Shown here piece after piece: positions 1,761 through 59,800 of a stretch of DNA of 64,000 nt. The notes below the pieces were generated by a model. It was not told the origin of the DNA and searched no databases. It saw only the letters and a program-made list of their open reading frames with translations. How positions within the stretch are numbered: position 1 is the stretch's first letter; each line of letters starts with the position of its first letter. Source of the stretch: Mobula hypostoma (lineage: Eukaryota); the NCBI RefSeq assembly GCF_963921235.1, contig NC_086097.1, positions 35,466,001 to 35,530,000 on the forward strand, in the 5' to 3' direction. Both the position numbers and the translations under genes were made by a program.

Positions 1761-2361
1761 TCCAGATCAATTTTCTGGTAACTTAACCTTGAACATCATC
1801 ATAATCTATTTGCAAAACATAAGGTAAAAGAAAAGAACAAAATTTAGATGGAAGGTGCTTGCTATTTACTTGACAGATGACTGTAGAGAGTTCACCTGTG
1901 ATGTAATTGAGCCTGCCACCTCATCTTTCATTCAGTGCTCTGAAAGGCACAGAAAATGAGAGATTCTCCTTTGGAATTATCCTGGGCAGAATTTTGATTG
2001 CCGTTGTGATGGATATTGCTCATGGGGATCTCCCAGATAAATACAACTGCAAAATGTAGATGTCACATGCTTCACAAACAGAATAGACAACACACTGCCA
2101 GTCTGCACAGTGACTTGCTCAACTCTAAAAAAAAAATGTTGCTAGGAATTTCAGCTGTGTGACATTGTATGTCAGCATTATATAATTGAATATTGTCTAT
2201 CAGTGTGGGAAGATGATATGCCATGTTCCAATTAATTGTTTCAATCCAGAAGTACAATTGGACACTTCCAAGGTGGCATCAAACTTCTAGTCCAGACATA
2301 TTTTATCCATGAGGGGTGCATAGTTTGATATCAGAAGATAACCAGTCAAACCTATCAAACA

Positions 2362-2462
2362 AGTCCTGGTGATGGGTCTCGGTCTGCAATGTCAACTGTT
2401 TATTCCTCTCCATCGATGCTACTTAACCCATTGAGTTCCTCCAGCATTTTGTGTGTGTTGTG
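2362..2462 (+). mobile_element. Penelope-like element pseudo-LTR fragment with decayed hammerhead motif
   Basis: agtcctggtgatgggtctcggtctgcaatgtcaactg...gagttcctccagcattttgtgtgtg matches the better-preserved copies at 39638 and 42897. Confidence 0.6.
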
Positions 2463-5970: not shown

Positions 5971-6394
5971 ATGTTGATCTTTTGAGATATACTGGGACAA
6001 GTTATTGTATAGGAGAAAATGAAGCTGTTAAATATTTTCTTTAAATCCTCCAGGATATGTTTTCCAGTGAAGTGGAAAATATTGAAGTAATTAGAGACAG
6101 TTAAACCAAATTAGCTTGCTGTGCAGAGAGTAATATGTGGCTTTTTGTTGTTGTAGTAATGATTAATGTTTGAATTAAATTAACATAATTACTTGCATGG
6201 GACTGGTGATTGGTTTACACTATAGCTTCATTTTAATTTGCTTTTTACAATGAACTGCAGTCCCTGCAGACCTGACACATGTTGTTCAGCTGTACTCTGG
6301 CAAGAACTAACATTTTAGGCAAAGTATTAAAAATTGGTTCAAATTTACTGAAACACACCAGTCAATATTGGAGAGGGTAAGGAGATTTCATTAT

Positions 6395-6905
6395 AAACAC
6401 AAAAGATTCTGCAGATGCTGGAAATCCTGAGCAACACACATAAAATGCTGGAGGGACACAGCAGGTCGGGCAACATCTATGAAAATGAATAAGCAATCAA
6501 TGTTTATCATTTTCAGGACTAAAAAGGAAGGGGGAAGATGGCAGAATAAAAAGGTGGGGGAGAGGGAAAGGAGGACATGCTAGAAGATGATAGATGAAGC
6601 CAGGTGGGTGAAGAAAGGTAAAGGGCTGGAGAAGGAATCTGATAGGAGAGGAGAGTTAGCCATGGCAGAAAGGTAAGAAGGAGAGGCATCAGGGGGAGGT
6701 GATAGGCAGATGAGGGGAAAAGGTAAAAGGCCAGAGTGGGGAAAAAGAAATTGATGTTCATGCTATCAGGTTGGAAGCTAGCTAGATGGAACATGAAGTG
6801 TTGCTCCTTCGCCCTGGGAGTTGCCTCATCGTGGCAAAAGAGGTCAAGGACGAAAATGTCAGAATGGGAATGGGGATAGGAATTAAAGTGGTTGGCCTCC
6901 GAAAA
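6395..6905 (-). mobile_element. Penelope-like element 3' fragment (endonuclease C-terminus plus pseudo-LTR)
   Basis: ORF 6519-6794 starts FHLASFQPDSMNINF, matching IFRLGSLQPDGMNIDF at 40034-40249; followed by a pyrimidine-rich UTR and a ccagcatctgcagaatc end. Confidence 0.75.
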
Positions 6906-7079
6906 ATTTATTATTAACTAGTGTGGAGGAAAACTAAGGATTCGAGGGCCAAGGAGAGAAACTAAATATTTGAGGAAGAGAACCAAGGATTAGAGGGAAA
7001 AGGGAGAGGTATAATGGTTAGAAAGGAATAGGGAAAATGGCAGGGACCTGCAGAGTACTGATATACAGAGAAACCGAAG

Positions 7080-12367: not shown

Positions 12368-13982
<1,615 letters not shown>

Positions 13983-19581: not shown

Positions 19582-19679
19582 ATTTGCAGGGGGAGGGGAA
19601 CCAGAGTGTTAGAGCAGATAATGAGGTGGAGGAGGATAAAGGTCATGAGAGAACTGCAAGTATAGTACATGGAGATCTA

Positions 19680-23649: not shown

Positions 23650-24213
23650 TGTCGATGAGTGAATGAAGTCACCGGAGATGAGTACTGGTAGTTATGAGGC
23701 AGTCTCTTTATGGGGCAAAATGAGGTACCACTGGCATCAGATTGAGACCCTCTCAGAGGAAAATGTCTGCTTGACCCAGCACTACATGACATTTTATGTG
23801 CTAACGATCAAAGGAAGTCTCGGATAATTCCATGTTTACAATGTTTCCCTCGTACTACACACCACCTTTACACCTCCCTCTATTGCACCCACACTACAGA
23901 CAACCTGATAAACACAGATAACGAACGAAGAGTCTCGGCCTGAAACGTCGACTGTACCTCTTCCTAGAGATGCTGCCTGGCCTGCTGCGTTCACCAGCAA
24001 CTTTGATGTGTGTTGCTTTAACGAATTTAAATCAGCATTGTCTGGTCTTCCAAATAACTGTTGTGTTTTCCAATTGACTTGGTTCCCATTTCTTAGGAGT
24101 TCATTGTTCAGAGTTGCATTTTAGAGTTAATCTTCAATGCATACTCAGATCTGAAGGCTGGTCACTGAAATCGATATTCACTATATGTCCTAACCCTAAA
24201 AAAATCCCTGACA
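23650..24213 (-). mobile_element. Probable solo LTR inserted in the Tc1-like element
   Basis: Host reads caatcatgt|...|tttgtggcag around a block with TGTC...GACA ends; minus-strand cataaa ~50 nt from the 3' end; TSD imperfect. Confidence 0.45.
23926..24018 (+). mobile_element. Penelope pseudo-LTR fragment (hammerhead 5' half missing)
   Basis: cgaagagtctcggcctgaaacgtcgactgtacctc...atgtgtgttgct flanked by taacgaa at 23919-25 and 24019-25. Confidence 0.85.
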
Positions 24214-29692: not shown

Positions 29693-30444
29693 AGTGATTG
29701 CATCATAAAGGGGGAGAAGAGTCATTAAAATTATGAAGAAAAGTTCTGTTGAATATGAAGGCAAGTGGGGCAGAAGTAGTGTACCAGGAATCCTTCTGAT
29801 TGGGAGAAGGTGAGAACAGAGGTCTGGGAAACAGGATACATGATGGAGAATATTGTCAACTGTAGCAGAAAGGAAAAGGGAAGACATTTCAGAAGCACCA
29901 GTGCAGAAAGTGGTGACATCAGAACAGATAAGGTGGAGACAGAGGAAGTGGGAAAATGGAATGTAAATCCTTTACAGAAAGCATGATGGAAGGAAGTACA
30001 ATCAAATTAACTACAAAGTGTGAGAGGGCGTAATTGGTATTGGTCCCTAACATATTGACTGAGATGGAGTGGAGTTAGAAATGTCAAGAAAGGGAAGGCA
30101 AGAGTGCTGGTGAAGGGGTTCAGCCGGAACATCGACTCCATCGATGATGCCTGACTTGCTGAGTTCCTCCAACATATTGTGTTAATTTCTCAGGAGCTGG
30201 AGGTGAATCATCTCGGAGTGACCACAGAATGGAATTTGACAACAATGATAATGACGTTTTTGAATTCTTTATCAGTTTATGGAAACAACACTAAAACAAA
30301 CATCAATGCACTGGAAATTGAGTGGACAGAGGGAGTGTTGTCTGATGACCAAAATAATGACTACTCCACAAGTGAGGAGGAGACGTGGTGGTGCTATGTA
30401 AAATGCTGACAGTGCTAGGTAAAACAGATGTAAAAAGAACAATT

Positions 30445-30846
30445 CTCTCCCTCTCCCTCTCCCCCCTCCCCCCCTCTTCCTCCCCCTCCCTCCCCTCCCC
30501 ATCTCCCTCCCCCTCCCCCTTCTCCCTCCCCCTCCCCCTTCTCCCTCCCCCTCCCCCTTCTCCCTCCCCTTCTCCCCCTCCCTCCCCCTCTCCTTCCTCT
30601 CCTTCTGTCTCTCCTCCCTCTCCTCCCTGTCCTTTTCCCTCTTCTTCTCCCTCTCCCTCCCTCCCCATCCCCTGTCCCTCCCCCTCTCCCTCCCCCTCCC
30701 CTTCTCCCTCTCCCCTCCCCTCCCCCTCCCCCTCCTTCTTCCTCTCCTTCTCTCTCCTCCCTCTCGTTCTCCCTCTCCTCCCTGTCCTTCTCCCTTTTCC
30801 TCTCCTTCTCTCTCCCTCCCCATCCCCTCTCACCCTCCCATCCCCT

Positions 30847-30931
<85 letters not shown>
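30445..30931. repeat. Polypyrimidine low-complexity tract (CCCTCC/CCCTCT-like) ending in a perfect (CT)n
   Basis: Nearly all C/T over ~485 bp; about 34 CT units at 30852-30920. Confidence 0.97.
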
Positions 30932-30932
<1 letters not shown>

Positions 30933-31339
30933 ACAATATGTCTACTTTTAGAAATTCACTGAAACTGAAATCATTCCACAATGATAGTTTAGTTTAAAAG
31001 CCGCTGGATGAGTTTTTAGGTAGGAATTTTACAAGCACTCTCAAGGATATAACAGCTCAGTGCACATGTGGTGCTATTATCGATTTTAAAGCTCACAGAC
31101 AAAAGCCTTTAAGAAAGAGACCATTTTAATAGACTGCACAAAAACAGAATTTATTAATGGCTTAATAAGGTGAAACTAAATACCTCCAAAGGTATATTGA
31201 ATAATTTGAAGTACAAATACATACCCTTGTACATCAAGCAAAGATTAATGTGTAACAAGAAAGGACATGATTTTGGGATCTTCAGAAACCCACAGTCCAG
31301 AAATGTAGGCAACAGCTGAGGCTAAACAAAAGAATGAAA

Positions 31340-33660: not shown

Positions 33661-33964
33661 CAAATTGTTAAGGATGAGGTAAGCACAGGAAGCTGCTGCT
33701 GTGAATAAAGAACAACAATTGGATTATTGATGTTGGCAGCAATCTGTTGCTGATTATGTCACAATGGGAATGATTGGCCTTCTAGACAGGAGAAACAGGC
33801 ATGCCCATCTATGAAGGGCCTATATCCACAAAGCATTCAGTAAGATCACATCTGACCTGGGCCTCTCTGGGGAGCACTGTCTCACAGGTTCAAATTTCCT
33901 AAGCTGTCATCACTGCGATGTTGTATGTGACACACAGCGGAAAAACTTACAGCAACAGTACCGA

Positions 33965-35060
33965 GCAAAGTGCTGGATGGAATCAGCAGGTCAGGCAGTA
34001 TCGATGGAGAGAGGTAAACAGTCATCAGGCCCTCATCAGGACTGAAAAGGAAAAGGGGCAGAAGCCAGAATAAGAAGGTGGGGGGAAGATCAGGAGTACA
34101 ATGGGCAAGTGATAAGTAAACCCAGCTGAAGGGGAAGGTGGATGTGTGAGGGGGATGTACTAAGAAGCTGGAGGATTATAGATGGAAGATCTGAAAAGGG
34201 AATCTGATTGGAGAAGACAATGAACATGGAAGAAAATGAGGGAAGAGACACGCCAGAGGGAGGTGATGGGCAGGTGAAGAGAAGAGGTGGGAGGAGAACC
34301 AGAATGGGGAATGAAAAAGAGAGAAGGGGGAGGGTGAAAAATTACTGCAAGTTAGAGTATTCAATGTCCATGCTTCAGGCTGGACTCTACCCAGAGAGAA
34401 TATGAGATATGCACCTCCAATCTGAGGGTGGCAGTAGGAGAGGCCATAGACTGAAAAGTCAGAATGGAAATGGGAAGTCAAATTGAAAACGACAGTTACC
34501 AGGAAATCGTGCATTTAGTGGCGGATAGAGCGAAGGTGGTCAATGAAGGGGTCCCCGGATCTATGTGATGTATTGAAGCCCACACTGGGAGCACTAACAG
34601 GCTCAAAGATGAAGTGTCACCTCACTTAGAAGGACTATTTGGGGCCCTGAATGGTAGCAAGGAACGGGATGTAAAGGTAAGTGTAGCACTCATCCCTCTT
34701 GTAGGAATAGGTGTCAGGAGGGAGAGCTGTGCATTCAGTGGAGCAGGAACAGGCAGTAGCAATGGGCCTACCTGGACAGTCACGTTTGTGGATCCTGGGT
34801 AGGAGGTAGACACGAGCAGTGTGGTGTAAGGGAAGTAGGCAGAAGATCTTCAGAGTTGACGAGGTTCATGATTGTGTGGGAGACAATGGCCTGATGTTAC
34901 TTAGTGAGGTCCTGCCAAGGGGTAAGTAAGAAAAGGTGTCTGAGAGTTGCCGCCTGGCCTCAGCAAAGCAGAGGTCAGTTCACCAGACTATAAAAGCACT
35001 CCCTTTTCTGCTAAGTACTGGGCCACTCTCTTCTTTGCAGTAGGATCTTCTCAGGTGACC
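33965..35060 (-). mobile_element. Degenerate Penelope-like element (GIY-YIG region plus pseudo-LTR)
   Basis: ORF 34176-34514 LIFSLGRVQPE; minus strand near 34530-34600 encodes a decayed SQCGLQYI...FIDHLR; pLTR end at 33970-34045. Confidence 0.7.
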
Positions 35061-35163: not shown

Positions 35164-38100
35164 TAGAACATAGAACATAGAATAGTACAGCACAGTAAAA
35201 GCCCTTCAGCCCACAATGTTGTTCTGACCCTCAAACCCTGCCTCCCATATTATCCCCAACCTTAAATTCCTCCATATACCTGTCTAGTAGTCTCTTAAAC
35301 TTCACTAGTGTATCTGCCTCCACCACTGACTCAGGCAGTGCATTCAACGCACCAACCACTCTCTGAGTAAAAAACTTTCCTCTAATATCCCCCTTGAACT
35401 TCCCACTCCTTACCTTAAAACCATGTCCTCTTGTACTGAGCAGTGGTGCCCTGGGGAAGAGGTGCTGGATATCCACTCTATCTATTCCTCTTATTATCTT
35501 GTACACCTCTATCATGACTCCTCTCATCCTCCTTCTCTCCAAAGAATAAAGCTCTAGCTCTCTTAATCTCTGACCATAATGCATACTCTCTAAACCAGGC
35601 AGCATCCTGGTAAATCTCCTCTGTACCCTTTCCAATGCTTCCACATCCTTCCTATAGTGAGGTGACCAGAACTGGACACAGTACTCCAAGTGTGGCCTAA
35701 CCAGAGTTTTATAGAGCTGCATCATTACATCGCGACTCTTAAACTCTATCCCTCGACTTATGAAAGCTAACACTCCATAAGCTTTCTTAACTACCCTATC
35801 CACCTGTGAGGCAACTTTCAGGGATCTGTGGACATGTACCCCGAGATCCCTCTGCTCCTCCACACTACCAAGTATCCTGCCATTTACTTTGTACTCTGCC
35901 TTGGAGTTTGTCCTTCCAAAGTGTACCACCTCACACTTCTCCGGATTGAACTCCATCTGCCACTTCTCAGCCCACTTCTGCATTCTATCAATGTCTCTCT
36001 GCAATCCTTGACAATCCTCAACACTACCTACAACACCACCAACCTTTGTGTCATTTTCAAACTTGCCAACCCACCCTTCTACCTCCACATCCAGGTCATT
36101 AATAAAAATCACGAAAAGTAGAGGTCCCAGAACAGATCCTTGTGGGCCACCACTAGTCACAATCCTCCAATCTGAATGTACTCCCTCCACCACCACCCTC
36201 TGCCTTCTGCAGGCAAGCCAATTCTGAATCCACCTGGCCAAACTTCCCTGGATCCCATGCCTTCTGACTTTCTGAATAAGCCTAACGTGTGGAACCTTGT
36301 CAAATGCCTTACTAAAATCCATATAAATCACATCCACTGCACTACCCTCATCTATATGCCTGGTCACCTCCTCAAAGAACTCTATCAGGCTTGTTAGACA
36401 CGATCTGCCCTTCGCAAAGCCATGCTGACTGTCCCTGATCAGACCATGATTCTCTACATGCCCATAGATCCTATCTCTAAAAATCTTTTCCAACAGCTTT
36501 CCCACCACAGACGTAAGGCTCACTGGTCTATAATTACCCGAAATATCCCTACTACCTTTTTTGAACAAGGGGACAACATTTGCCTCCCTCCAATCCTCTG
36601 GTACCATTCCTGTGGACAACAAGGACATAAAGATCCTAGCCAGAGGCTCAGCAATTTCTTCCCTCACCTCGTGGAGCAGCCTGGGGAATATTCCCTCAGG
36701 CCCCAGGGACTTATCTGTCCTAATGTATTTTAACAACCCCAACACCTCCTCTCCCTTGATATCAACATGCTCCAGAACATCAACCTCACTCATATTGTCC
36801 TCACCATCATCAAGTTCCCTCTCATTGGTGAATATCGAACAGAAGTATTCATTGAGGACCTCGCTCACTTCCACAGCCTCCAGGCACACCTTTCCACCTT
36901 TATCTCTAATCGGTCCTACCTTCACTCCTGTCATCCTTTTTTTCTTCACATAATTGAAGAATGCCTTGGGGTTTTCCTTTACCCTACTCGCCAAGGCCTT
37001 CTCATGCCCCCTTCTTGGTCTTCTCAGCCCCTTCTTAAGCTCCTTTCTTGCTTCCCTATATTCCTCAATAGACCCATCTGATCCCTGCTTCCTAAACCTC
37101 ATGTATGCTGCCTTCTTCCACCTGACTAGATTTTCCACCTCACTTGTCACCCATGGTTCCTTCACCCTACTATTCTTTATCCTCCTCACTGAGACAAATT
37201 TATCCCTAACATCCTGCAAGAGATCTCTAAACATTGACCACATATCCATTGTACATTTCCCTGCAAAAGCATCATCCCAATTCACACCCACAAGTTCTAG
37301 CCTTATAGCCTCATAATTTGCCCTTCCCCAATTAAAAATTTTCCTGTCCTCTCTGATTCTATCCTTTTCCATGATAATGCTAAAGGCCAGGGAGCGGTGG
37401 TCACTGTCCCCCAGATGCTCACCCACTGAGAGATCTGTGACCTGACCCGGTTCATTACCTAGTACTAGATCTAGTATGGCATTCCCCCTTGTTGGCCTGT
37501 CCACATACTGTGACAGGAATCCATCCTGGACACACTTAACAAACTCTGCTCCATCTAAACTCTTGGAACTAATCAGGTGCCAATCAATGTTAGGGACGTT
37601 AAAGTCACCCATGATAACAACTCTGTTATTTTTGCACCTTTCCAAAATCGACCTCCCAATCTGTTCCTCGGTATCTCTGCTGCTACCAGGGGGCCTATAG
37701 AATACCCCCAATAGAGTAACTGCTCCCTTCCTATTCCTGACTTCCACCCATATTGACTCAAAAGAGGATCCTGCTACATTACCCACCCTTTCTGTAGCTG
37801 TAATAGTATCCCTGACCAGTAATGCCATCCCTCCTCCCCTTTTTCTGCCCTCTCTATCCCTTTTAGAGCACTGAAATCCAGGAACATTGAGAATCCATTC
37901 CTGCCCTGGTGCCAGCCAAGTCTCTGTAATGGCCACTACATCATAATTACATGTATGTATCCAAGCTGTCAGTTCATCACCTTTGTTCCTGATGCTTCTT
38001 GCATTGAGGTACACACATTTCAGCCCTTCTACCTTACTGTCTTTACACCGTTTATTCTGCTTCTCTTTCCTCAAAGCCTCTCTGTATGTTAGGTCTGGCT

Positions 38101-38243
38101 TTACTCCATGCACTTCTTTCACTGCTCTATTGCTCTGGGTCCCATCCCCCTTGCAAATTAGTTTAAACCCTCCCGAACCATGCTAACAAACCTACCTGCA
38201 AGGATATTGCTCCCCCTTGAGTTCAGGTGCAACCTATCCAATC
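35164..38243 (-). mobile_element. Young CR1 LINE, truncated at the end of ORF1, with uninterrupted ORF2
   Basis: (tagaaca)n tail at 35164; DRLHLNSRGSNILAGRF ORF1 end; same subfamily as 18781-22593. Confidence 0.98.
35231..38122 (-). CDS. CR1 ORF2, APE endonuclease plus reverse transcriptase, 963 aa; RT motif mutated to FEND
   Basis: YLNARS, ITETW, MGDFN, LDLV, SDH endonuclease motifs; NYRPVSL, QHGF, DFSKAFDKV, PQGSVLGP RT motifs. True start codon uncertain. Confidence 0.93.
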   Translation of the reverse strand: MKEVHGVKPDLTYREALRKEKQNKRCKDSKVEGLKCVYLNARSIRNKGDELTAWIHTCNYDVVAITETWLAPGQEWILNVPGFQCSKRDREGRKRGGGMALLVRDTITATERVGNVAGSSFESIWVEVRNRKGAVTLLGVFYRPPGSSRDTEEQIGRSILERCKNNRVVIMGDFNVPNIDWHLISSKSLDGAEFVKCVQDGFLSQYVDRPTRGNAILDLVLGNEPGQVTDLSVGEHLGDSDHRSLAFSIIMEKDRIREDRKIFNWGRANYEAIRLELVGVNWDDAFAGKCTMDMWSMFRDLLQDVRDKFVSVRRIKNSRVKEPWVTSEVENLVRWKKAAYMRFRKQGSDGSIEEYREARKELKKGLRRPRRGHEKALASRVKENPKAFFNYVKKKRMTGVKVGPIRDKGGKVCLEAVEVSEVLNEYFCSIFTNERELDDGEDNMSEVDVLEHVDIKGEEVLGLLKYIRTDKSLGPEGIFPRLLHEVREEIAEPLARIFMSLLSTGMVPEDWREANVVPLFKKGSRDISGNYRPVSLTSVVGKLLEKIFRDRIYGHVENHGLIRDSQHGFAKGRSCLTSLIEFFEEVTRHIDEGSAVDVIYMDFSKAFDKVPHVRLIQKVRRHGIQGSLARWIQNWLACRRQRVVVEGVHSDWRIVTSGGPQGSVLGPLLFVIFINDLDVEVEGWVGKFENDTKVGGVVGSVEDCQGLQRDIDRMQKWAEKWQMEFNPEKCEVVHFGRTNSKAEYKVNGRILGSVEEQRDLGVHVHRSLKVASQVDRVVKKAYGVLAFISRGIEFKSRDVMMQLYKTLVRPHLEYCVQFWSPHYRKDVEALERVQRRFTRMLPGLESMHYGQRLRELELYSLERRRMRGVMIEVYKIIRGIDRVDIQHLFPRAPLLSTRGHGFKVRSGKFKGDIRGKFFTQRVVGALNALPESVVEADTLVKFKRLLDRYMEEFKVGDNMGGRV

Positions 38244-38930: not shown

Positions 38931-39265
38931 CTATAAGGTACTGCGTTGTTCCTAAAAAGTTACTGCAGTGGTCTATGGTACCCACATCCAAGGCGAGAGA
39001 GGTCAACTTTGACTTCCCTAGCTCCTGACGCGATTCAGTCATACATTGCAGTTGAGCATCTCACAGAGAGAGACATGTAAGCATCGATATTTCTGTTTTG
39101 AACTTTGGTGGGGATGTGTTAGAGAGAATAAGTTACGGGGGGGGGTACAAGAAAATAATGTGCAAAGAGTGAATGGGATTGATTGGATGGTTTGGGAGGA
39201 AGATAGCATGGAATTGAGGGGTCAAATGGACTCTTTCTGTGTCTCCATATGGAAAATGTCTAAAA

Positions 39266-39351
39266 TAGGGATTCCCAACCTGGGAACATGGACCTGGGAT
39301 CCTTTAGTTAATGGTAGTACTTCATGGCATTAAAAAAGTTGGCTACCCATG
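39266..39351. mobile_element. Possible short hAT-type MITE
   Basis: Imperfect TIRs tagggattcccaacct / aagttggctacccatg; no clear 8-bp TSD. Confidence 0.35.
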
Positions 39352-39637
39352 GGAACAATTGAAAATTGTGTAAATTTGCAGTGGGATACACACAGAAGCT
39401 GGCGGCATATGATTCTGGGTATAAACTTCCATGGCACTCCTTTTCGTGTATTCCCAGCCAAATTCACATGTCTTTATAGACCTGACGGGGTGTGAATGCT
39501 CTGCCATGCACATGTTTAGTGCATTAAGAAAGGGAAATATCCTATTTACTGGCACAAATACTTCATGCTTTCTGATGTGTCTTCATGCACCATTAATGGA
39601 GACAAGAGGGCTGAAAAAAATCCCGTGTTATTCATAG

Positions 39638-40270
39638 CAACACACATCAAAGTTGCTGGTGAACGCAGCAGGCCAGGCAGCATCTCTAGAAAGAGGTACA
39701 GTTGACGTTTCGGGCTGAGACCCTTCGTCAGGACTAACTGAAGGAAGAGTTAGTCAGAGATTTGAAAGTGGGAGGGGGAGGGGGAGATCCAAAATGATAG
39801 GAGAAGATAGGAGGGGGAGGGATGGAGCCAAGAGCTGGACAGGTGATTGGCAAAAGGGATATGAGAAGATCATGGGACAGGAGGCCCAGGGAGAAGGAGA
39901 AGGGGGAGGGGGGAAAACCCAGAGGATGGGCAAGGGGTATAGTGAGAGGGACAGAGGGAGAAAAAGGAGAGAGAGAGAAAGAATGTGTGTATATATATAA
40001 ATAATGGGTGGGGTACGAGGGCGAGGTGGGGCATTAGCGGAAGTTTGAGAAGTCAATGTTCATGCCATCAGGTTGGAGGCTACCCAGACGGAATATAAGG
40101 TGGTGTTCCTCCAACCTGAGTGTGGCTTCATCTTTACAGTAGAGGAGGCCGTGGATAGACATATCAGAATGGGAATGGGATGTGGAATTAAAATGTGTGG
40201 CCACTGGGAGATCCTGCTTTCTCTGGCGGACAGAGCGTAGGTGTTCAGCATATTCATATATTCAGCGTAG
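39638..40270 (-). mobile_element. Young Penelope-like insertion (endonuclease C-terminus, UTR, pseudo-LTR)
   Basis: 40249-40034 translates without stops: AEHLRSVRQRKQDLPVATHFN...LRLEEHHLIFRLGSLQPDGMNIDFSNFR*; 13-bp TSD gtgttattcatag at 39625-37 and 40271-83. Confidence 0.9.
39699..39736 (-). ncRNA. Minimal type I hammerhead ribozyme motif (one helix I mismatch)
   Basis: UAGUC CUGACGA A GGGU-CUCA-GCCC GAAAC GUC AACUG. Confidence 0.6.
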
Positions 40271-42896
40271 GTGTTATTCATAGGTTTGTTCAGTTATTGT
40301 GTCCACATCGGCCACTCCTCTGCACCCTTCATTCTCCCCGTGCATTGTCACTTTACACTGACACTCCACATCTCATGCCTACACTGACACAACCTCTCTC
40401 CTACTGTCTTTTCATATAGCCTACTGCTACTTAGAAGAGTTCCTCTTGCCAAGAGTCACTTTCTCACTTTATCATTTCCTGTCAATCACCGTATGTTCAG
40501 ATTCTCCCGTATAAATGGCCACATTGAACAGTTACTTGTACATTGTATTTTATAGGATTGCTTTTATATTTATATTTGTTTTTTTTCGCTTATTATTTTT
40601 TAATGCTGCATCAGGTCTGGAGTAACAATCATTTTGTTCTGTTTTACACTTATGAAGACTGACAATATATTAACGATCTTGAATGTTGAAAACTGCATGA
40701 AAGGCAAATTTAGAGTGTAGGTAAAATATTTCCACACACAAAGGCTATCCAACACTCAGAACAGAAAAGATGACAGGACTAATTCCAGAGTTGTGTAGAA
40801 AACAAGTGAGTCATTCCTGGGTGATGTAGATTAAAAGTAAATGAGTTTCATGCTTGCCTTGCATGATTTCCAAGTGGATTTTCCTTTCTGATCTTTCATG
40901 AACTCAGCTTTTCTCTAATCCAGTTGCTTATTCTAATGGAGGGAGATGCATAAGATCATACACTTTCCATTGTTACCAGTTCATGATATAAGAACAGTAT
41001 AAACCTTTGGCGATGCTGGTCTGCATGAGACATACAGTTCTGCTGAAATGGCATTTTATGTTAATGGATGTTGTTCAAAGGCCAGCCTCTCCAATTGTGC
41101 TGCCACAGGAGCTAATCTCAAATTTAAACTTTCAATTTCATCCCACCCACACCAAACAGCCCTGCAGACCAAAGTCTTTATGAGTAGGGCACTCTTGGCT
41201 GGACAACCAAGAACAGCATCCTGCTCCTCTAAAGTGTATAAATTATAGTTGTTTAAGCTATATAATTATCATTTTATACACCTGAATTCCCAGCTCTGCC
41301 TACTTATATCCAAGCTCTGCTGATTTATGTAAGTAATGTTTATACTGTGCAATAGAAATATTAAATTTTCAGTGCCTCAGGGAAGCCATCTATTTTCACT
41401 CTCTTGTTTCCCTGTGTTGGGGTATAAACTGTTTCACACTGCCTGTTTTGCAATGGTTATGAAAACCATATTTGAGGTTGTTTGCTGCGCTCATATAAAA
41501 TATCCACTTACCTAAAATAAAGCTTTAATAATGATTGTTGAACTACATAAACACATGGTAATCAGCTCTTCAGTCCAACTGGTCTATATTAACCACATCT
41601 TCCTTCCTGCTAGTCCCATCAGCCCATAATCCCCCAAGCCATTTCCCTCCACGTCTGTTTCAAAATGCCTCTTAAATCTTGCATTTGTACACACCTCTAC
41701 CACTTCTTCTGGCAGCTCATCCCAGCTACTCAGTACCCTCTGTGTAAAGAAGTTACCTTCAGGTCACTTGTAAATCTTTCCATTTTTGTATCTATCTCCT
41801 CTAATCTTCGACTCCCCAACCCTGAGGAAAAGACTATTAGTATCCACCCCTCATGCGTTTATAAACTTCTATCAGGTCAGTCCGTATGCTCCAGGGAATA
41901 GCGATCCATTGTTGTCAACCTCTCCCTATAATTTAGGCCGTCTAGTCCAGACAAGATCCTTGTAAATCTCCTTTGCACCCTCTCTAGCTTGATAGTGCCT
42001 TTCCTATAACAGGATAGCCAGACCTGTACACAGTACTCCAAGTGCGGCTGCACCAATTACATACATAACTGCAATATAATGTCCCTAGCCCTAAATCTGA
42101 TGCCCCAACTGAAGGACAACCTGTTAAATGCTGCCTTCGCCACCCTGTTAACTTGCAAGACCACTTTCAGCATACTGTACCTGTAGTCACAAGTTGCCCT
42201 GTTCCTCAACCCTTGTCAGTGTGTTGTCGTTCACTCTATAAGTCTCACCTTGCTTCGACTGCCATAACTGCATCACCTCACACTTCAAACTCAAATTCAA
42301 GTTCAAGTTTAGTGTTATTCAACCATTCATGAATACCCATGAATACAGCCAAATGAAACAGCATTACTCCAGGGCCAAGGTGCAAAACACAATACCAACA
42401 CTCACACACAGCACATGGCAAATATAGCACATATAAACTAGCAAGCACGTATAAGGTAACAGTAAAATACAGTCACACAAAAAAATATAATCCAAGTCCC
42501 TGAGTCCATGAATGTTGCAGCAGTCTGCAGTCACACATAATGCAGTATGTCTTCTGCTGAGCGAACGTTAGGGGGCAGCACTGACTCCACCATGGACACT
42601 GTGCCTCAATGCCTCCGACACTGCAGTGGAGTACCCGATTCCAACGTCTCTCTTGGAGCGGTTGCAAACAGTCGACACCACAGATTGAGGGCTAGTCGTC
42701 GCTACGAATGAAGCAATGCAGCTCCCCTGCCTTTCGCCAATATACCACTGAATTGGACTTGCAGCATTCCACACCACCAAGATGGTCTTGCTATCACAAG
42801 TTTTCTAAGTTGAAATCCATTTGCCACTCCTCAGCCTATCTCCCTAACTGATCAAGATCTCTGCAACTTACTGTAACCTGTTTTGCTTACAACATG

Positions 42897-43049
42897 CATC
42901 AAAGTTGCTGGTGAACACAGCAGGCCAGGCAGCATCTCTAGGAAGAGGTACAGTCGACGTTTCGGGTCGAGACCCTTCGTCAGGACTAACTGAAGAAAAA
43001 GTTAGTAAGAGGTTTCCAGCATCTGCAGAATTCCTGTTGTTTGTTGTTC
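42897..43049 (-). mobile_element. Penelope pseudo-LTR insertion with an inverted terminal segment
   Basis: 12-bp TSD gcttacaacatg (42885-96, 43050-61); minus-strand pLTR 42897-43010 joined to plus-oriented tttccagcatctgcagaattcctgttgtttg. Confidence 0.85.
42951..42988 (-). ncRNA. Minimal type I hammerhead ribozyme motif, intact
   Basis: UAGUC CUGACGA A GGGU-CUCG-ACCC GAAAC GUC GACUG: helix I UAGUC/GACUG, helix II GGGU/ACCC, palindromic ACGU in place of helix III. Confidence 0.72.
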
Positions 43050-43224
43050 GCTTACAACATGACTCCCTAATTTAGTATCATAAGCAAACTAGCTTATTGT
43101 GTCACATACATTCTTATCCAAATCACTTGCATAATAATGACCACAACTTAATGTTTCAGAGTGTTTGACAAATTCATCCTGTAAATGCAAGCATGGAATA
43201 GAAAAGGGAAAGTTGAAATCATAT

Positions 43225-43600
43225 CACAAGATTCTGCAGATGCTGGAAATCCAGAGTAGCACAAAGAAAATGCTGGACGAACTCGGCAGGTCAGGCAGTA
43301 TCTAAGGAAAGGAATAAACGGTTCACGTTTCAGGCTGAGAATTTTCATCAGGACTGGAAAGGAAGGGAGAAGAAGCCAGGATAAGAAGCTGGGTGGGGTG
43401 GGGGTGTGGGGAAGAGCACAAGCTAGAAGGTGATCGATGAAGCCAGCTGAGGAAGAAGGTAGGTGGCTGGAGAAGGGAGATGAAGTGCGAAGCTGGGAAG
43501 TTGGGATGAAGAAGGAATCTGATAGGAGATGAGAGTGGACCATGGGAGAAAGGGAAGGCGGAAGGGTACCAGGGAGCAGGTGAAAGAGAAGAGGTAAGAG
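43225..43600 (-). mobile_element. Penelope-like 3' UTR/pseudo-LTR, decayed hammerhead at ~43318-43357
   Basis: acaagattctgcagatgctggaaatcc end; minus strand cagtcctgatgaaaattctcagcctgaaacgtg. Confidence 0.75.
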
Positions 43601-43659
43601 TTTTAACATCTTGCAGGGTGGTAAAGATTTGAAAACTGCAACTCTTGCCTGGAGTGAGT

Positions 43660-46600
43660 CTTAAAGAAAGGAGGTGAAAGTGGAGTGGCCATTGTGTGAT
43701 TGGACGGTATTAGAGTGGTCTGGCTTTGACTCCACAGGCTTGGGTAAGCATAGGCGGAGGTTCTAAGTAAGTTTCTAGTAATTTTTTAAATCAGTAGTAC
43801 ATAGCTAGTGCACTGAGAATGAGTCCAGAGTTAGCAAGATGTTCATTGTGTGAGATGTGGGAACTTTGGGAGACCTCCAATCTCCCAGATAAATACATCT
43901 GCACGAAGTGTACCAAACTGCGGCCCCTTAAAGACCATGTTAAGGAACTGGAGTTGCAGCTTGATGAGCTTTGGCTTATATTGGAGAATAAGGAGGTGAT
44001 AGATAGGAGCTACAGTGAGGTAATCAGCCCTAAGTTGCAGGAGGCAGATATCTGGCTGATTGTTTAGGCAGGGAAAGGGAATAGGCAGCCAGTGCAGAGC
44101 ACCCCTGTGGCCATTCCCTCAATAATAAGTACATTGCTATTGACACTGTTGGGGAAAGAAGACTGCAATAGTAATAGGGGATTCCATAGTTAGGGGAGCA
44201 GACAAGAGACTCTGTGAATGTGATAGACACTGGGATGGTATTTTGCCTCCCAGGTGCCAGGGTCAGGGACGTCTTGGATCGGGTCCACAGCATTCTAAAG
44301 GGGGAAGGTGAACAGTCAGATGTGGTGGTACATATTGGTACCAACAACATAGGTAGGAAATGGAAGGAGGTCCTGAAGAGAGAACATAAGGTGTTAGGTA
44401 GAATACTGCAAAGCAGTAAACACAAAATATTCTGCAGATGCTGGGGTCAAAGCAACACGCACAACATGCTGGAGGAACTCAGCAGTTCGGACAGCATCCG
44501 TGGAAATGGACAGTCAACGTTTCGGGCCAAGACCCGACGAGTCTCGGTCCGAAACGTTGACTGTTCTTTGCCACGGATGCTGCCCGACCTGCTGAGTTCC
44601 TCCAGCGTGTTGTGCATACTGCAAAGCAGGGCCTCCAGGGTAGTAATCTCTGGATTCCTGCCTGTGCCATGCACCAGTGAGGTTAAGAATAGGAAGATTT
44701 GGTGGATGAATGTGTTGCTGAGGAACTGGTGGAGAGGGCAGGATTTCAGATTTCTGAATCATTGGAATCTCTTCAGGCGAAGGTATGACACAAAAAGGAC
44801 AGGTTATATCTGATGGGACCAAGTCCTTGTGGGTAGGTTTGATAGAGCTGTTGGAGAAGATTTAAACTAATTAGGCATGGGGATAGAGCCGAGGATAGAA
44901 CAGTTAGTATACAAGTAGAGGCAGTGTGTAGTGAGACTTTGAGAAAGGACAGGCAGCTGATAGGGCAAAACTGCAGTCAGTGGGATGAGTTGAAGTGGGT
45001 GAAAAGGGTGATGAATACAGGACTGAAGGTGTTATATTTGAATGCACACAGTATCCGGAATAAGGTAAATAATCTTGTAGCGCAATTAGAAATTGGCAGA
45101 TATGATGTTGTGGGCATCACTGAGCCGTGGCTGAAGGAAGATCATAGTTGGGAGCTTACCCTCCACGGATACACATTGTATCAAAAAGACAGAGAGGGTG
45201 GTATGGCTCTGCTGGTGAAAAATAAAATCAAATCTTTAGAAAGAGGCTGTATTGGATCAGAAGATGTAAAATCCTTGTGGGTAGAGTTAAGAAACTGCAA
45301 ATGTAAAAGAGATACTGTTGGGAGTCGTATACAGGTCTCCAAATAGTAGCAAGGATGTGGGATACAAATTACAATGGGAGATAGAAAAGATGTGTAAAAA
45401 GGGCTATATTATGATAGTCATGGGGGATTTCAATATGCAAGTAGATTAGGGAAATCCCATGGTGCTGGATTCCCGAGAGAGAGTTTATAGATGGTCTACG
45501 AAATTGCTTTTTAGAGCAGCTTGTGGTTGAGCCCACATGAGGAAAGGCAATTCTGGCTTGGGTGTTGTGTAATGAACCAAAATTTGAGTCGGTGGCTGAG
45601 GGTAAAGAAACCCTGAGGAAACTGTGATCATAGTATACTAGAATTCACCCTGCAGTGTAAGACAGAGATGATGAAGACAGATGTATTGGCACTACAGTGG
45701 AGTAAAGGGAATTATGGAGGCATGAGGGAGGAGAAGGCAAAGTTGATTGTAAGGAGACACTTGCAGAACAGCAATGACAAGGAAAGTCCAAGTCCGCATA
45801 AGAACAAAGGATAGGGCATATAACAGAGCAAAAATTAGTGGGGAATTAGAGGATTGGTACGCTTTTAAAACCAACAGAAGGCAACCAAAAAAAATCATAA
45901 AGAGAGAAAAGATGAAATATGAGAGAAGCTAGCCAATAATAAAACAAAAGATGCAATAAGATTTTTAAATACATAAAGAGTAAAGAAGAGGCAAGACTGG
46001 ATATCGGACAGCTGGAAAATGACACTGGAGAGGTAGCAATGGGAGACAAAGGAATGGCAGAGGAACTGAATAAGTATTTTGTCTCAGTCTTCAGTATGCC
46101 AGAAGTTTCAGTGTCAGGGGGCAGAAATGGATGTTGGTGCTATTAATAACAAAAAGGTGCTTGGGAAACTGGAAGGTCTGAAGGTAAATAAATCACCTGG
46201 AGCACATGAACTACATCCCAGAGTTCTGAAAGTGGTAGGTGAAAAGATTGTGGAGGCATTAGTATCAAGAATCAATATATTCTGACATGGTCCCAGAGGA
46301 CCTGAAAATTGCAAATGTTACTCCATTCTTTAAGAGGGAGGGAGGCAGAAGGAAGGAAATTATAGGCCAATTAGCCTGATTCAGTGGTTGGGAAGATGTT
46401 GGAGTCCATTATTATGGATGAGGTTTCGGGGTACTTGGAGGCACACGATAAAATAGGCCAAAATCAGCATGGTTTCCTTAAGGGAAAATCTTGCCCAACA
46501 AATATGTTTGAATTCTTTGAGGAAATAACAGGCAGGATAGACAAAGGTGAATCAGTGGGTGTTGTGTATTTAGATTTTTAGAAGGCCTTTGACAAGATAC

Positions 46601-47725: not shown

Positions 47726-48554
47726 CTTTGTCTTATGTCCTTAATAGGGGAGCCAGAGTGGGGAATGGAAGAAGGTGGAAGGGGGAGGAGGAGATTACCA
47801 GAAGTCAGAGAAAGCGATATTAATGCCATCAGGTTGGAGGCTGTCCAGATGGAGTATGTTGTGTATTGTAGGGACTCCTTAATTTCATTAGGTAGAATTC
47901 ACCCAGACTGTTAAGGGTTAAGCTTGCCATGTATGTTACATGTTATGTTGTACGTTGTTACGTTCTGGTATATTCTTAAATATATATGATGTCAAGATTT
48001 GTTGGCGGGTGGCATAAAGTGTACGTTGGAAGTAATTATACTCGTGTCAGTTTTTGTCAACACCCCTACAGTATTGAATTTAAAGTTAAGATTATGGCTT
48101 CACAGGATCACTAGCAATTGGCTCACAAATGTGGTACCTAATATTGCTTTCTAATTTGAGGATAAGGTAAGATCATTGGAATTAGAAATGCCCATTGCAA
48201 AAATTACAATGGAGTTTAATGATTTCTTCCTAAGGTAGAAAATAATCCAGTTGTGAGAAATCTGACTTATTTTAAAGGAGTTGCTACTTGACAATTTTTC
48301 GAGCAATGAAGTGTGTCCACTACCAAGGGCTCTCCTAAAGATTTCACCCCTCACACGCAGCATTATTGAAATGGTGACATACCTAATTTGGAACTGGTCT
48401 AATGTCCATATCATTCACCTAACTCTACCAGATACTTGCCATCTAGGTTAAGGTCTTGAGATGGTTGCCAGCTGTTTGCGAAGGGATTAGTTATTCTAAT
48501 AAAATCAGATCACAGTGTAATCTTTGGGGCCACAATTCCAGCTATAAATTATAG

Positions 48555-53869: not shown

Positions 53870-56800
53870 CATTGCCTCCATCCTCCTGCTGCTCCTGAAC
53901 ATCCTAAACCCTCATGACCCCTTCTCCCTCCTGTACTTCCCTCACATCCACCTCCTCTCCATCCTGTACTTGCCCCCACACCCAAATCCTCTCCCGCCTG
54001 TATTTCACCCACACCCACATCCTCTCCCTCCAGAACTTCCCCCACACCCACATCCTGCCCCTCCTGTACTTCCCCCACACCCGCATCCTCTCCCTCCTGT
54101 ACTTCCTACACACCCACATCCTCTCCCTCCAGTAATTCCCCCACACCCACATCCAGCCCCTCCTGTACATCCTAAATGCTCACATCCTCCTCTCCCTCCT
54201 GTACTTCCCCCACATCCACCCCCTCTTCCTCCCGTACATTCCCCACACCCACATCCTCTCCCTCCTGTACTTCCCTCAAACCCAGATCCTCTACCTCCTG
54301 TACTTCCCCCCACACCCACATGCTCTCCCCGCTGTACATCCGAAACCCTCACATCCTCCTGCTGCTCCTGTGCATCATAAACCCTCACATCCACCTCTCC
54401 CGCCTGTACATCCGAAACCCTCACATCCTCCTCTCCCTCCTGTGCACCCTAAACCCTCACATCCTCCTGCTGCTCCTGTGCATCATAAACGCTCACATCC
54501 ACCTCTCCCTCCTGTACATCCTAAACCCTCACATCCTCCTCTCCCTCCTGTACATCCTAAAACCTCACATCCCCCTCTCCCTCCTGTACATCCTAAACCC
54601 TCACATCCCCCTCTCCCTCCTGTACATCCAAAACCCTCACATCCTCCTCTCCCTCCTGTACATCCTAAACCCTCACATCCTCCTCTCCCTCCTGTACATC
54701 CAAACCCTCACATCCTCCTCTCCTCCAATACATACCAAACCCTCACATCCTCCTCTCCCTCCTGTACATCCTAAACCCTCACATCCTCCTCTCCCTCCTG
54801 TACATCCTAAAACCTCACATCCCCCTCTCCCTACTGTACATCCTAAACCCTCACATCCCCCTCTCCCTCCTGTACATCCTAAACCCTCACATCCCCCTCT
54901 CCCTCCTGTACATACAAAACCCTCACATCCTCCTCTCCCTCCTGTACATCCTAAACCCTCACATCCTCCTCTCCCTCCTGTACATCCTAAACCCTCACAT
55001 CCTCCTCTCCTCCAATACATACCAAACCCTCACATCCTCCTCTCCCTCCTGTACATCCTAAACCCACACACCCACCTGCTGCTCCTGTACAACTTAAACA
55101 CTCACATCCTCCTCTCCCTCCTGTACATCCTAAACCCTCACATGCTCCTCTCCCTCCTGTACATCCTAAACCCTCACATGCTCCTCTCCCTCCTGTATAT
55201 CCTAAACCCTCACATCCTCCTCTCCCTCCTGTACATTCTAAACACTCAAATCCTCCTCTCCCTCCTTAACATTCTAAACGTTCACATCCACCTCTCCCTC
55301 CTGTACATCCTAAACACTCACATCCTCCTCTCCCTCCTATACATCCTAAACACTCACATCCTCCTGCTGCTCCTGTACAACCTAAACACTCACATCCTCC
55401 ACTCCCTCCTGTACATCCTAAACCCTCACATCCACCTCTCCCTCCTATACATCCTAAACCCTCACATCCACCTCTCCCTCCTATACATCCTAAACCCTCA
55501 CATCCACTCCCTCCTGTACATCGTAAACCCTCACATCCTCACCTACCTCCTGTACATCCTAAACCAGCACATCCTACTCTCCCTCCTGTACATCCTAAAC
55601 CCTCACATCCTCCTCTCCCTCCTGTACATCCTAAACCCTCACTTCCTCCTCTCCCTCCTGTACATCCTAAACCCTCACATGCTCCTCTCCCTCCTGTACA
55701 TCCTAAGCCATCACATCCTCCTGTCCCTCCTGTATATCCTAAACCCTCACATCCTCCTCTCGCTCCTGTACATCCGAAACCCACACATCCTCCTCTCCCT
55801 CCTGTACATCCTAAACCCTCACAACCTGCTCTCCCTCCTGTACATTCTAAACACTCAAATCCTCCTCTCCATCCTATACATCCAAAACGTACACATCAAC
55901 CTCTCCCTCCTGTACATCCCAAACCCTCACATCCATTCCCTCCTGTACATCGTAAACCCTCACATCCTCACCTACCTCCTGTACATCCTAAACCTGCACA
56001 TCCTACTCTCCCTCCTGTACATCCTAAACCCTCACATCCTCCTCTCCCTCCTGTACATCCTAAACCCTAAAATCCTCCTAACCCTCCTGTACATCCTAAA
56101 CCCTCAAATCTTCGTCTCCCTCCTCTACATCCTGAACCCGCACATCCTCCTCTCCCTCCTGTACGTCCTAAAACCTCACATCCTCCTGGCCCTCCTGTAC
56201 ATTCTAAACACTCAAATCCTCCACTCCCTCCTATACATCCTAAACGTTCACATCCCCCTCTCCCTCCTGTACATCCTGAACCCTCACATCCTCCTCTCCA
56301 TTCTGTACATCTTAAACACTCACATCCTTTTCTCCCTCCTGTACATCCTAAACCCTCACATCCACTCCCTCCTGTACATCGAAAAAAGGCTCACATCCTC
56401 CCCTACATCCTGTACATCCTGAAGCAGCACATCCTCCTCTCCCTCCTGCACATCCTAAACCGTCACATCTTCCTCTCCCTCCTGTACATCCTAAACCCTC
56501 AAATCCTCCTCTCCCACCTGTACATCCTAAGCGCTCACATCCTCCTCTCCCTCCCGTACATCCTAAACCCTCACATCGTCCGCTCCCTCCTGTACATCCT
56601 AAACCCTCACATTCTCCTCTCCCTCCTGTACATCCTAAACACTCACATCCTCCTCTCCCTGCTGTACATCCTAAACACTCACATCCTCCTGTCCCTCCTG
56701 TATATCCTAAAACCTCACATCTTCCTCTCTCTCCTGTACATCCTAAACCCTCACATCCTCCGCTCCCTCCTGTACATCCTAAACCCTCACATCCTCCTCT

Positions 56801-59800
56801 CCCTCCCGTACATCCTAAACCCTCACATCCTCCTCTTCTCCAATACATACCAAACCCTCACATCCTCCTCTCCCTCCTGTACATCCTAAACCCACACACC
56901 CTCCTGCTGCTCCTGTACAACTTAAACACTCACATCCTCCTCTCCCTCCTGTACATCCTAAACCCTCACATGCTCCTCTCCCTCCTGTATATCCTAAACC
57001 CTCACATCCTCCTCTCGCTCCTGTACATCCTAAATGCTCACATCCTCCTCTCCCTCCTGTACTTCCCCCACATCCACCCCCTCTTCCTCCCGTACATTCC
57101 CCACACCCACATCCTCTCCCTCCTGTACTTCCCTCAAACCCAGATCCTCTACCTCCTGTACTTCCCCCCACACCCACATGCTCTCCCCGCTGTACATCCG
57201 AAACCCTCACATCCTCCTGCTGCTCCTGTGCATCATAAACCCTCACATCCACCTCTCCCGCCTGTACATCCGAAACCCTCACATCCTCCTCTCCCTCCTG
57301 TGCACCCTAAACCCTCACATCCTCCTGCTGCTCCTGTGCATCATAAACGCTCACATCCACCTCTCCCTCCTGTACATCCTAAACCCTCACATCCTCCTCT
57401 CCCTCCTGTACATCCTAAAACCTCACATCCCCCTCTCCCTCCTGTACATCCTAAACCCTCACATCCCCCTCTCCCTCCTGTACATCCAAAACCCTCACAT
57501 CCTCCTCTCCCTCCTGTACATCCTAAACCCTCACATCCTCCTCTCCCTCCTGTACATCCAAACCCTCACATCCTCCTCTCCTCCAATACATACCAAACCC
57601 TCACATCCTCCTCTCCCTCCTGTACATCCTAAACCCTCACATCCTCCTCTCCCTCCTGTACATCCTAAAACCTCACATCCCCCTCTCCCTACTGTACATC
57701 CTAAACCCTCACATCCCCCTCTCCCTCCTGTACATCCTAAACCCTCACATCCCCCTCTCCCTCCTGTACATACAAAACCCTCACATCCTCCTCTCCCTCC
57801 TGTACATCCTAAACCCTCACATCCTCCTCTCCCTCCTGTACATCCTAAACCCTCACATCCTCCTCTCCTCCAATACATACCAAACCCTCACATCCTCCTC
57901 TCCCTCCTGTACATCCTAAACCCACACACCCACCTGCTGCTCCTGTACAACTTAAACACTCACATCCTCCTCTCCCTCCTGTACATCCTAAACCCTCACA
58001 TGCTCCTCTCCCTCCTGTACATCCTAAACCCTCACATGCTCCTCTCCCTCCTGTATATCCTAAACCCTCACATCCTCCTCTCCCTCCTGTACATTCTAAA
58101 CACTCAAATCCTCCTCTCCCTCCTTAACATTCTAAACGTTCACATCCACCTCTCCCTCCTGTACATCCTAAACACTCACATCCTCCTCTCCCTCCTATAC
58201 ATCCTAAACACTCACATCCTCCTGCTGCTCCTGTACAACCTAAACACTCACATCCTCCACTCCCTCCTGTACATCCTAAACCCTCACATCCACCTCTCCC
58301 TCCTATACATCCTAAACCCTCACATCCACCTCTCCCTCCTATACATCCTAAACCCTCACATCCACTCCCTCCTGTACATCGTAAACCCTCACATCCTCAC
58401 CTACCTCCTGTACATCCTAAACCAGCACATCCTACTCTCCCTCCTGTACATCCTAAACCCTCACATCCTCCTCTCCCTCCTGTACATCCTAAACCCTCAC
58501 TTCCTCCTCTCCCTCCTGTACATCCTAAACCCTCACATGCTCCTCTCCCTCCTGTACATCCTAAGCCATCACATCCTCCTGTCCCTCCTGTATATCCTAA
58601 ACCCTCACATCCTCCTCTCGCTCCTGTACATCCGAAACCCACACATCCTCCTCTCCCTCCTGTACATCCTAAACCCTCACAACCTGCTCTCCCTCCTGTA
58701 CATTCTAAACACTCAAATCCTCCTCTCCATCCTATACATCCAAAACGTACACATCAACCTCTCCCTCCTGTACATCCTAAACCCTCACATCCATTCCCTC
58801 CTGTACATCGTAAACCCTCACATCCTCACCTACCTCCTGTACATCCTAAACCTGCACATCCTACTCTCCCTCCTGTACATCCTAAACCCTCACATCCTCC
58901 TCTCCCTCCTGTACATCCTAAACCCTAAAATCCTCCTAACCCTCCTGTACATCCTAAACCCTCAAATCTTCGTCTCCCTCCTCTACATCCTGAACCCGCA
59001 CATCCTCCTCTCCCTCCTGTACGTCCTAAAACCTCACATCCTCCTGGCCCTCCTGTACATTCTAAACACTCAAATCCTCCACTCCCTCCTATACATCCTA
59101 AACGTTCACATCCCCCTCTCCCTCCTGTACATCCTGAACCCTCACATCCTCCTCTCCATTCTGTACATCTTAAACACTCACATCCTTTTCTCCCTCCTGT
59201 ACATCCTAAACCCTCACATCCACTCCCTCCTGTACATCGAAAAAAGGCTCACATCCTCCCCTACATCCTGTACATCCTGAAGCAGCACATCCTCCTCTCC
59301 CTCCTGCACATCCTAAACCGTCACATCTTCCTCTCCCTCCTGTACATCCTAAACCCTCAAATCCTCCTCTCCCACCTGTACATCCTAAGCGCTCACATCC
59401 TCCTCTCCCTCCCGTACATCCTAAACCCTCACATCGTCCGCTCCCTCCTGTACATCCTAAACCCTCACATTCTCCTCTCCCTCCTGTACATCCTAAACAC
59501 TCACATCCTCCTCTCCCTGCTGTACATCCTAAACACTCACATCCTCCTGTCCCTCCTGTATATCCTAAAACCTCACATCTTCCTCTCTCTCCTGTACATC
59601 CTAAACCCTCACATCCTCCGCTCCCTCCTGTACATCCTAAACCCTCACATCCTCCTCTCCCTCCCGTACATCCTAAACCCTCACATCCTCCTCTTCTCCA
59701 ATACATACCAAACCCTCACATCCTCCTCTCCCTCCTGTACATCCTAAACCCACACACCCTCCTGCTGCTCCTGTACAACTTAAACACTCACATCCTCCTC

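Follow-up and report, generated by a model that had tools for sequence, protein, structure and literature searches.

The closest described systems are the minimal hammerhead ribozymes of metazoan Penelope-like elements (PLEs; Cervera and de la Pena 2014, PMC4209133). In the available part of that paper they are recognised by four hallmarks: a base between positions 9 and 10.1, the pair G10.1-C11.1, a palindromic 15.2-16.2 and no loop 3. They are associated with the 3' repeat of an element with RT and GIY-YIG and occur mostly as single motifs on truncated copies, some of them close together on opposite strands. The motif at 42951..42988 of the window (the whole stretch of 64,000 nucleotides of ray DNA analysed here) is like them in these respects, in all four hallmarks and in a 5-bp helix I, whereas its helix II has 4 bp versus 7-8 bp in the Schistosoma families. 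One Schistosoma motif showed no cleavage as a monomer and weak cleavage as a dimer, even with adjacent copies. Cartilaginous fishes are unnamed in the available part of the text and in supplement file 2; file 1 may have chondrichthyan examples.

Three further systems were compared, each from the available part of its source. Neptune EN+ PLEs (Craig et al. 2021, PMC8557442) carry a C-terminal GIY-YIG after the RT, with a CX2-5CxxC linker as in the proteins closest to this family, and present 5' truncation, an inverted 5' partner and a tail on one end; the inverted partner and one-ended tail, together with a target duplication, form a described Penelope architecture (PMC8557442; PMC3846280). The 42951 copy differs in being non-coding. 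The Poseidon element of Anolis carolinensis, PAc (PMC11167929), has its hammerhead near the 3' end of insertions; two RT start sites account for its tail, and it cuts and extends the two strands of the target. Cleavage by this hammerhead requires addition of the element's protein, though not its endonuclease activity, and insertion in vitro does not depend on this cleavage. The linker motif is absent from Poseidon, and the PAc ORF starts inside the hammerhead, whereas the 38 bases at 42951 contain no AUG. Metazoan non-LTR retrozymes (bioRxiv 10.64898/2026.07.22.740005) are also PLE-derived and non-coding with a type I hammerhead, but their definition requires tandem units, every one with its own hammerhead, whereas 42951 is a lone inverted-arm insertion; among Xenopus retrozyme dimers one of nine was active and eight did not cleave. 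Our search, which left most subscription literature outside, found no paper on this ray hammerhead family, nor an activity test of it in the literature covered.

The motif and the insertion that carries it

The motif at 42951 is an intact hammerhead motif within a truncated insertion of a high-copy Penelope-like family, and very probably an inert passenger at its locus. On direct reading, the minus strand from 42988 to 42951 is UAGUC CUGACGA A GGGU CUCG ACCC GAAA C GUC GACUG, with the following parts:

42951..42988, minus strand: intact minimal type I hammerhead motif, 38 bases (sequence reading, descriptor and feature-by-feature check)
42984-42988 with 42951-42955, minus strand: helix I, 5/5 paired (U-G, A-U, G-C, U-A, C-G)
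42977-42983, minus strand: first core box, CUGACGA
42976, minus strand: extra A before helix II
42972-42975 with 42964-42967, minus strand: helix II, 4/4 paired, CUCG loop
42960-42963, minus strand: second core box, GAAA
42957-42960, minus strand: ACGU palindrome without loop, positions 15.1-16.1 (helix III region)
42956/42955, minus strand: predicted cut after GUC (C17 = 42956)

Position names (C17, 10.1, 15.1-16.1 and the like) follow the usual hammerhead numbering. The 38 bases are the minimal hammerhead kind already known from Penelope-like elements and described in 2014: they contain the CUGANGA and GAAA boxes, a UH cleavage site, helices I and II, the base between 9 and 10.1, the pair G10.1-C11.1 and a palindromic helix III region with no or only a tiny loop. 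The sequence-only reading had given the same boxes, paired helices, GUC and loopless ACGU, exactly as found, together with the same predicted cut between 42956 and 42955; its assignment to the Penelope type is borne out by this anatomy and by a same-subfamily copy beside an endonuclease remnant. The base after the cleavage triplet falls in a CpG (GUC/G; sites 39703-39704 and 42917), and a G-to-A change there recurs in the copies at 39699 and 2362, so the closing pair of helix I may be lost preferentially through decay of the methylation type.

A relaxed descriptor of type I (CUGANGA; an extra base allowed; at least 3 bp in each of helices I and II; GAAA; N paired with N' across a loop of 0-6; UH) gave one match on both strands of the 64 kb, the 42951 motif, and any match at all in 9 of 400 dinucleotide shuffles of bases 1-54000. 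A stricter form (helix II at least 4, helix I at least 5, no loop), with a threshold set after the motif was seen, matched in 0/400. The bare CTGANGA..GAAA pattern was found 17 times against 7.5 expected, which is weak on its own. No Rfam model scored the motif at the gathering threshold over the window, no hammerhead family was among the six matches at 39000-45000 with E<=10, and the folding energy of the motif did not reach significance (z -1.67; 11 of 200 shuffles were as stable), which is no surprise in a motif of this size.

The motif lies in a 150-bp 5'-truncated Penelope-like insertion, formed by a 115-bp 3' end and an inverted 35-bp tail:

42897..43011, minus strand: 3' end of a Penelope-like element, truncated at its 5' side to about 115 bp, with about 23 element bases upstream of the hammerhead
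43012..43046, plus strand: inverted 35-bp tail, head-to-head with the sense arm
42882..42896, unstranded: target-site duplication, near copy, 14/15 identical to 43047-43061
43047..43061, unstranded: target-site duplication, far copy
42803..43133, minus strand: old CR1 LINE reverse-transcriptase fragment split by the insertion (tblastn with the window's CR1 ORF)

Read along the minus strand, one target copy (43061-43047) comes first, followed by the inverted tail at 43046-43012, the sense arm at 43011-42897 and the other target copy (42896-42882). Tail bases 43013-43031 are identical (19/19) to the tails at 6406-6424 and 43231-43249; the tail region has very high summed contig depth in all four runs, and contigs link the 3' end of the unit, near 42890, to the tail. 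By chance, 29 of 3000 random zone pairs (about 1%) share a 13-mer with at most one mismatch. Target duplications of 13-15 bp were identified in three of the seven copies searched and none in the other four. CR1 coding sequence resumes on both sides of the insertion, with amino acids 693-727 on 43133-43029 (E 0.06, weak) and 729-748 on 42862-42803 (E 3e-4). One contig of a related organism (organism C, run X9) matches the flank 43047-43252 and its match ends at 43047, the edge of the duplication, which fits an empty site on alignment evidence; the empty-site joint itself was not among the matches listed, and the joint 42862 to 43065, also present in organism A, may stem from paralogous CR1 copies.

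The sequence-only reading had placed the motif in a Penelope pseudo-LTR (pLTR), and here it needs correction, the copy being a solo truncated insertion with its own 15-bp target duplication. The layout of an intact PLE (pLTR-ORF-pLTR, with RT-EN between the two pseudo-LTRs) is absent at 42951, where the 150 bp contain no ORF and no second pseudo-LTR and have no intact partner in the window. A terminal-repeat location is seen in the same-subfamily copy, which follows the endonuclease C-terminus; the 42951 copy is a solo truncated 3' end. Taking 42951 and 39699 as the two pLTRs of one element was rejected, each having its own target duplication; between them, 40284-42881 gave no Penelope coding match and contains CR1 pieces instead.

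Sister copies, parent element and abundance

Searching the window by nhmmer with the 131 bp around the motif gave 12 homologous places, among them all six sister sites listed earlier (39699, 2362, 23926, 30108, 43318 and 44513-44563). Seven copies were judged feature by feature, and 30108 and the others (five extra copies) from the alignment only. The main relatives are:

39638..40270, minus strand: same-subfamily 5'-truncated copy with GIY-YIG endonuclease C-terminus (40255-40034) and pyrimidine-rich 3' region
39699-39736, minus strand: near-intact hammerhead of that copy
39625-39637 / 40271-40283: 13-bp target duplication of that copy
43216..43625, minus strand: older second-subfamily copy with tail, boundaries approximate
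43319-43356, minus strand: dead hammerhead of that copy (both boxes kept; helix II 2/4, helix I 3/5, GUG)
44417..44615, unstranded: pair of truncated copies joined head-to-head, just one of the arms having a tail and neither the CUGANGA box
44403-44416 / 44616-44629: 14-bp target duplication of that insertion
23922..24015, plus strand: same-subfamily copy truncated inside the first core box
2358..2461, plus strand: decayed second-subfamily copy (CUGGUGA, GCAA)
30103..30174, plus strand: decayed copy (CUGGUGA, GGAA)
33951..34787, minus strand: longer copy, decayed, retaining a linker and an endonuclease remnant, with half of its hammerhead lost
6391..6907, minus strand: decayed copy that keeps a tail and an endonuclease remnant, its hammerhead being broken

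Of the 12 hammerheads, only that at 42951 is intact; in a second one helix I has lost its closing pair, and the remaining ten are broken or truncated. The earlier description of 39699 as near intact is accurate: boxes and helix II are intact and the closing pair of helix I is a C-A mismatch. In the copies at 2362, 23926, 30108 and 43318 and in both halves of 44511-44563, a core box, helix II or the GUC/UH site is missing, and at 34045, 6520, 4832 and 9783 the hammerhead is deleted or decayed. The copies at 42951, 39699 and 23926 form one subfamily at 91-93% identity, the sense arm 42897..43011 being 91% identical over 126 bp to the copy at 39638-39763 and 93% over 91 bp to 23925-24015, and older copies are about 72-78% identical where blastn aligned them. 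The hammerhead at 42951 is probably intact because its copy is young.

The mini-insertion at 44417-44615 sits in a CR1-like 5' region, and in both its arms the break falls inside the hammerhead, which results in a long hairpin; the miRNA-like Rfam matches at 44498-44576 were discarded as chance matches, being due to this head-to-head structure. Isolated Penelope coding remnants without a recognised hammerhead were seen at 29834-29962 (minus strand, post-RT region) and 47777-47863 (minus strand, endonuclease end). Among the other repeats of the window are a pair of young LINE copies of CR1 type with about 90% protein identity, at 35231-38182 (minus strand), which keeps a 983-aa open endonuclease-RT frame, and at 19563-22524 (plus strand); an SGNH/GDSL esterase-like ORF1 remnant at 19138-19581; a broken Tc1/Sleeping Beauty-like transposase at 12677-13724 (plus strand) with HTH_SB and DDE_3 matches; and a 36-bp C-rich minisatellite at 54086-64000 with 277 copies, a marked skew between strands and what looks like a higher-order repeat near 2858 bp (the ORFs at 54176 and 57034 are identical).

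The protein of the parent element is represented by a 70-aa frame at 40246-40037, about 300 bp upstream of the 39699 hammerhead. It matched nine of 16 candidate proteins, with 93% identity to P0001 of Mobula hypostoma (E 1e-33) and 76-87% to proteins of Hypanus sabinus, the highest being P0002 (87%). P0001 aligns over 119 aa, continuing into the 3' region. Homologous proteins contain RT-type YIDD/YVDN motifs and a GIY-YIG-like core. Pfam gave no match to the 70-aa fragment, and in four of six homologues GIY-YIG scored 18.8-20.9 bits, below the cut-off of 22.6 (E 5e-4 to 2e-3). A CX3-4CxxC linker was present in the five proteins checked (P0001-P0004 and P0008); the homologues thus have the Neptune arrangement, a CX2-5CxxC linker upstream of a C-terminal GIY-YIG, of which the window keeps a decayed trace near 34700. 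According to the partial texts available, this linker marks Neptune or Nematis rather than Penelope/Poseidon (PMC8557442), and Neptune and Poseidon are found in vertebrates (bioRxiv 10.64898/2026.07.22.740005); the parent element therefore likely belongs to the Neptune clade, judging from protein motifs, with a linker that Nematis shares. Three Hypanus sabinus proteins, P0004, P0006 and P0007, named as kinase-domain, ATP synthase subunit or mucin isoform, include Penelope endonuclease sequence and are likely gene models that absorbed the element.

The family carrying the motif is very large. In run X1 (DNA), summed contig depth over the motif, which is no copy number, was 5.8-10.7 million versus 11-13 for exact single-locus flank contigs, and it was also in millions in X5 and X9 (other organisms). 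The family sequence was abundant in X20 too, a run of contigs only which is guessed to be RNA; there, bins 42631-42696 and 43159-43191 had no cover and the repeat was deeply covered, a contrast that is not taken as evidence. For hundreds of contigs the alignment is confined to 42951-42987, both ends continuing into second-subfamily flanks, so the 38 bases are a block common to subfamilies, and this conservation fits selection on the motif in active lineages. At position 42967 (top pair of helix II) the 42951 copy has U-A and 97% of family depth has U-G, the pair being kept. The earlier expectation that this density implies very many self-cleaving motifs in the genome stands as regards the abundance of the family, but it counted relics, with one intact copy of 12 in the window. 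Across these 12 mostly decayed copies, 79% of helix cells are paired versus 15-45% when the alignment is slid, the covariation score was reached by 33 of 500 shuffles and the number of double changes by 199 of 500. A 28-base family pattern had no matches in viral contigs and none in metagenome contigs.

Folding, cleavage and alternative explanations

In the parent element, as known from the literature, the motif would cut tandem precursor RNA after GUC, acting as a dimer through the ACGU palindrome, and cutting would likely be aided by the element's own protein. For the insertion, the endonuclease would nick both strands 15 nt apart, and each nick would prime reverse transcription, at one or other of the two start sites of the element; one arm would end after the 35-nt tail and the other after about 115 nt, and the arms would join head-to-head. 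Such a twin-arm origin is likely for the 42951 insertion, by analogy with work on the Anolis element.

At its own locus the motif is not likely to cut RNA, as modelled folds suggest. The best monomer fold pairs the core GACG with CGUC (-12.6 versus -8.6 kcal/mol for the open form in a nearest-neighbour model), with a probability of 0.98-1.0 alone and 0.8 in a 171-nt context, where helix I pairs reach 0.01-0.02; in the predicted fold of the 150-bp copy the catalytic box is likewise paired to its own cleavage strand. These energies omit Mg2+, tertiary contacts and proteins or chaperones and are suggestive only, and they separate dead from working minimal hammerheads poorly since the perfect homodimer is also disfavoured (-16.1 versus 2 x -12.6).

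It had been proposed that the same-strand copies at 39699, 42951 and 43318 could pair within one transcript. A long minus-strand RNA joining 42951 with 39699 or 43319 would then cleave itself as a dimer, which we regard as very improbable. The copies are separate insertions, 42951 and 39699 each having its own target duplication. Their spacing of 3252 bp resembles the roughly 3 kb between natural pLTR hammerheads (PMC4209133, available part), so the distance is no objection in itself, and the modelled heterodimer of 42951 and 39699 forms 21 of 22 pairs, including all helix I pairs of the hammerhead that cuts the 42951 site. However, this dimer scores -13.1 versus -24.2 kcal/mol for the two monomers folded separately, and imposing it on the 3311-nt RNA costs 18.3 kcal/mol; with 43319, which has GUG and broken helices, the dimer scores +2.0. 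The weak cleavage of adjacent Schistosoma dimers and the eight inactive Xenopus dimers, both from partly available sources, also speak against it. Regarding a transcript to carry the pair, 134 of 140 repeat-free frames of at least 55 aa were scanned (leaving out six low-complexity frames at 30275-30994) and no host exon was identified, although shorter exons would be missed; the domains found were only those of transposons, namely Tc1-like transposase, RVT_1 and one ALKBH8_N match which is presumably LINE-derived. No RNA data set was listed for 40200-43300, which carries no weight as to expression. Cutting in trans, in which read-through RNA from 42951 would be cleaved by other family RNA or with the element protein wherever the element is active, is unlikely. 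It would agree with the protein dependence of the Anolis hammerhead and with the abundance of the family in X20, but the available part of the Anolis study (PMC11167929) reports no RNA-seq ends at the cut site and a minimal template that needed the first 172 nt of the ORF, a proposed protein-binding motif, whereas the 42951 insertion has an inverted tail and only about 55 nt of element after the cut.

Two other explanations concern what the insertion is, and both are scarcely credible. A non-LTR retrozyme would be a non-autonomous hammerhead unit that multiplies through tandem repeats and circular RNA; such units come from PLE pLTRs and were found in the one chondrichthyan sampled (bioRxiv 10.64898/2026.07.22.740005, available part), but no tandem array exists at 42951, which largely refutes this for the locus: a single unit with inverted tail and target duplication is found, and sister copies are continuous with endonuclease sequence. 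A ribozyme maintained by the host would explain why 42951 is the sole intact copy of the 12, but the whole sense arm is 91-93% identical to its sisters, so that few changes are expected in 38 nt anyway; the site is surrounded by a decayed CR1 fragment, no exon turned up near it, and the related-organism contig ends at the duplication edge as an empty site would. The inert passenger in a young truncated copy is the reading that we retain.

The 42951 motif is thus an ordinary example of a known motif in a known kind of truncated insertion, and it has little significance as it stands, since Penelope minimal hammerheads, truncated or inverted insertions and high copy numbers are already described. 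The locus is a clean small two-arm insertion with a one-sided tail and a possible presence/absence marker. Quite unlikely, as we see it, is a built-in off fold of the ray family hammerhead (GACG with CGUC, hiding the palindrome) that the element's protein would unlock, with cleavage at many host read-through sites. If it were true, a density of about one intact copy in 64 kb would mean that host RNAs are cleaved at very many read-through sites once the element is expressed, and an orientation bias of intact versus decayed copies would be expected in introns. A protein-switchable ray family would matter for the role of PLE ribozymes in living cells, and natural sites for testing it are plentiful in this genome.
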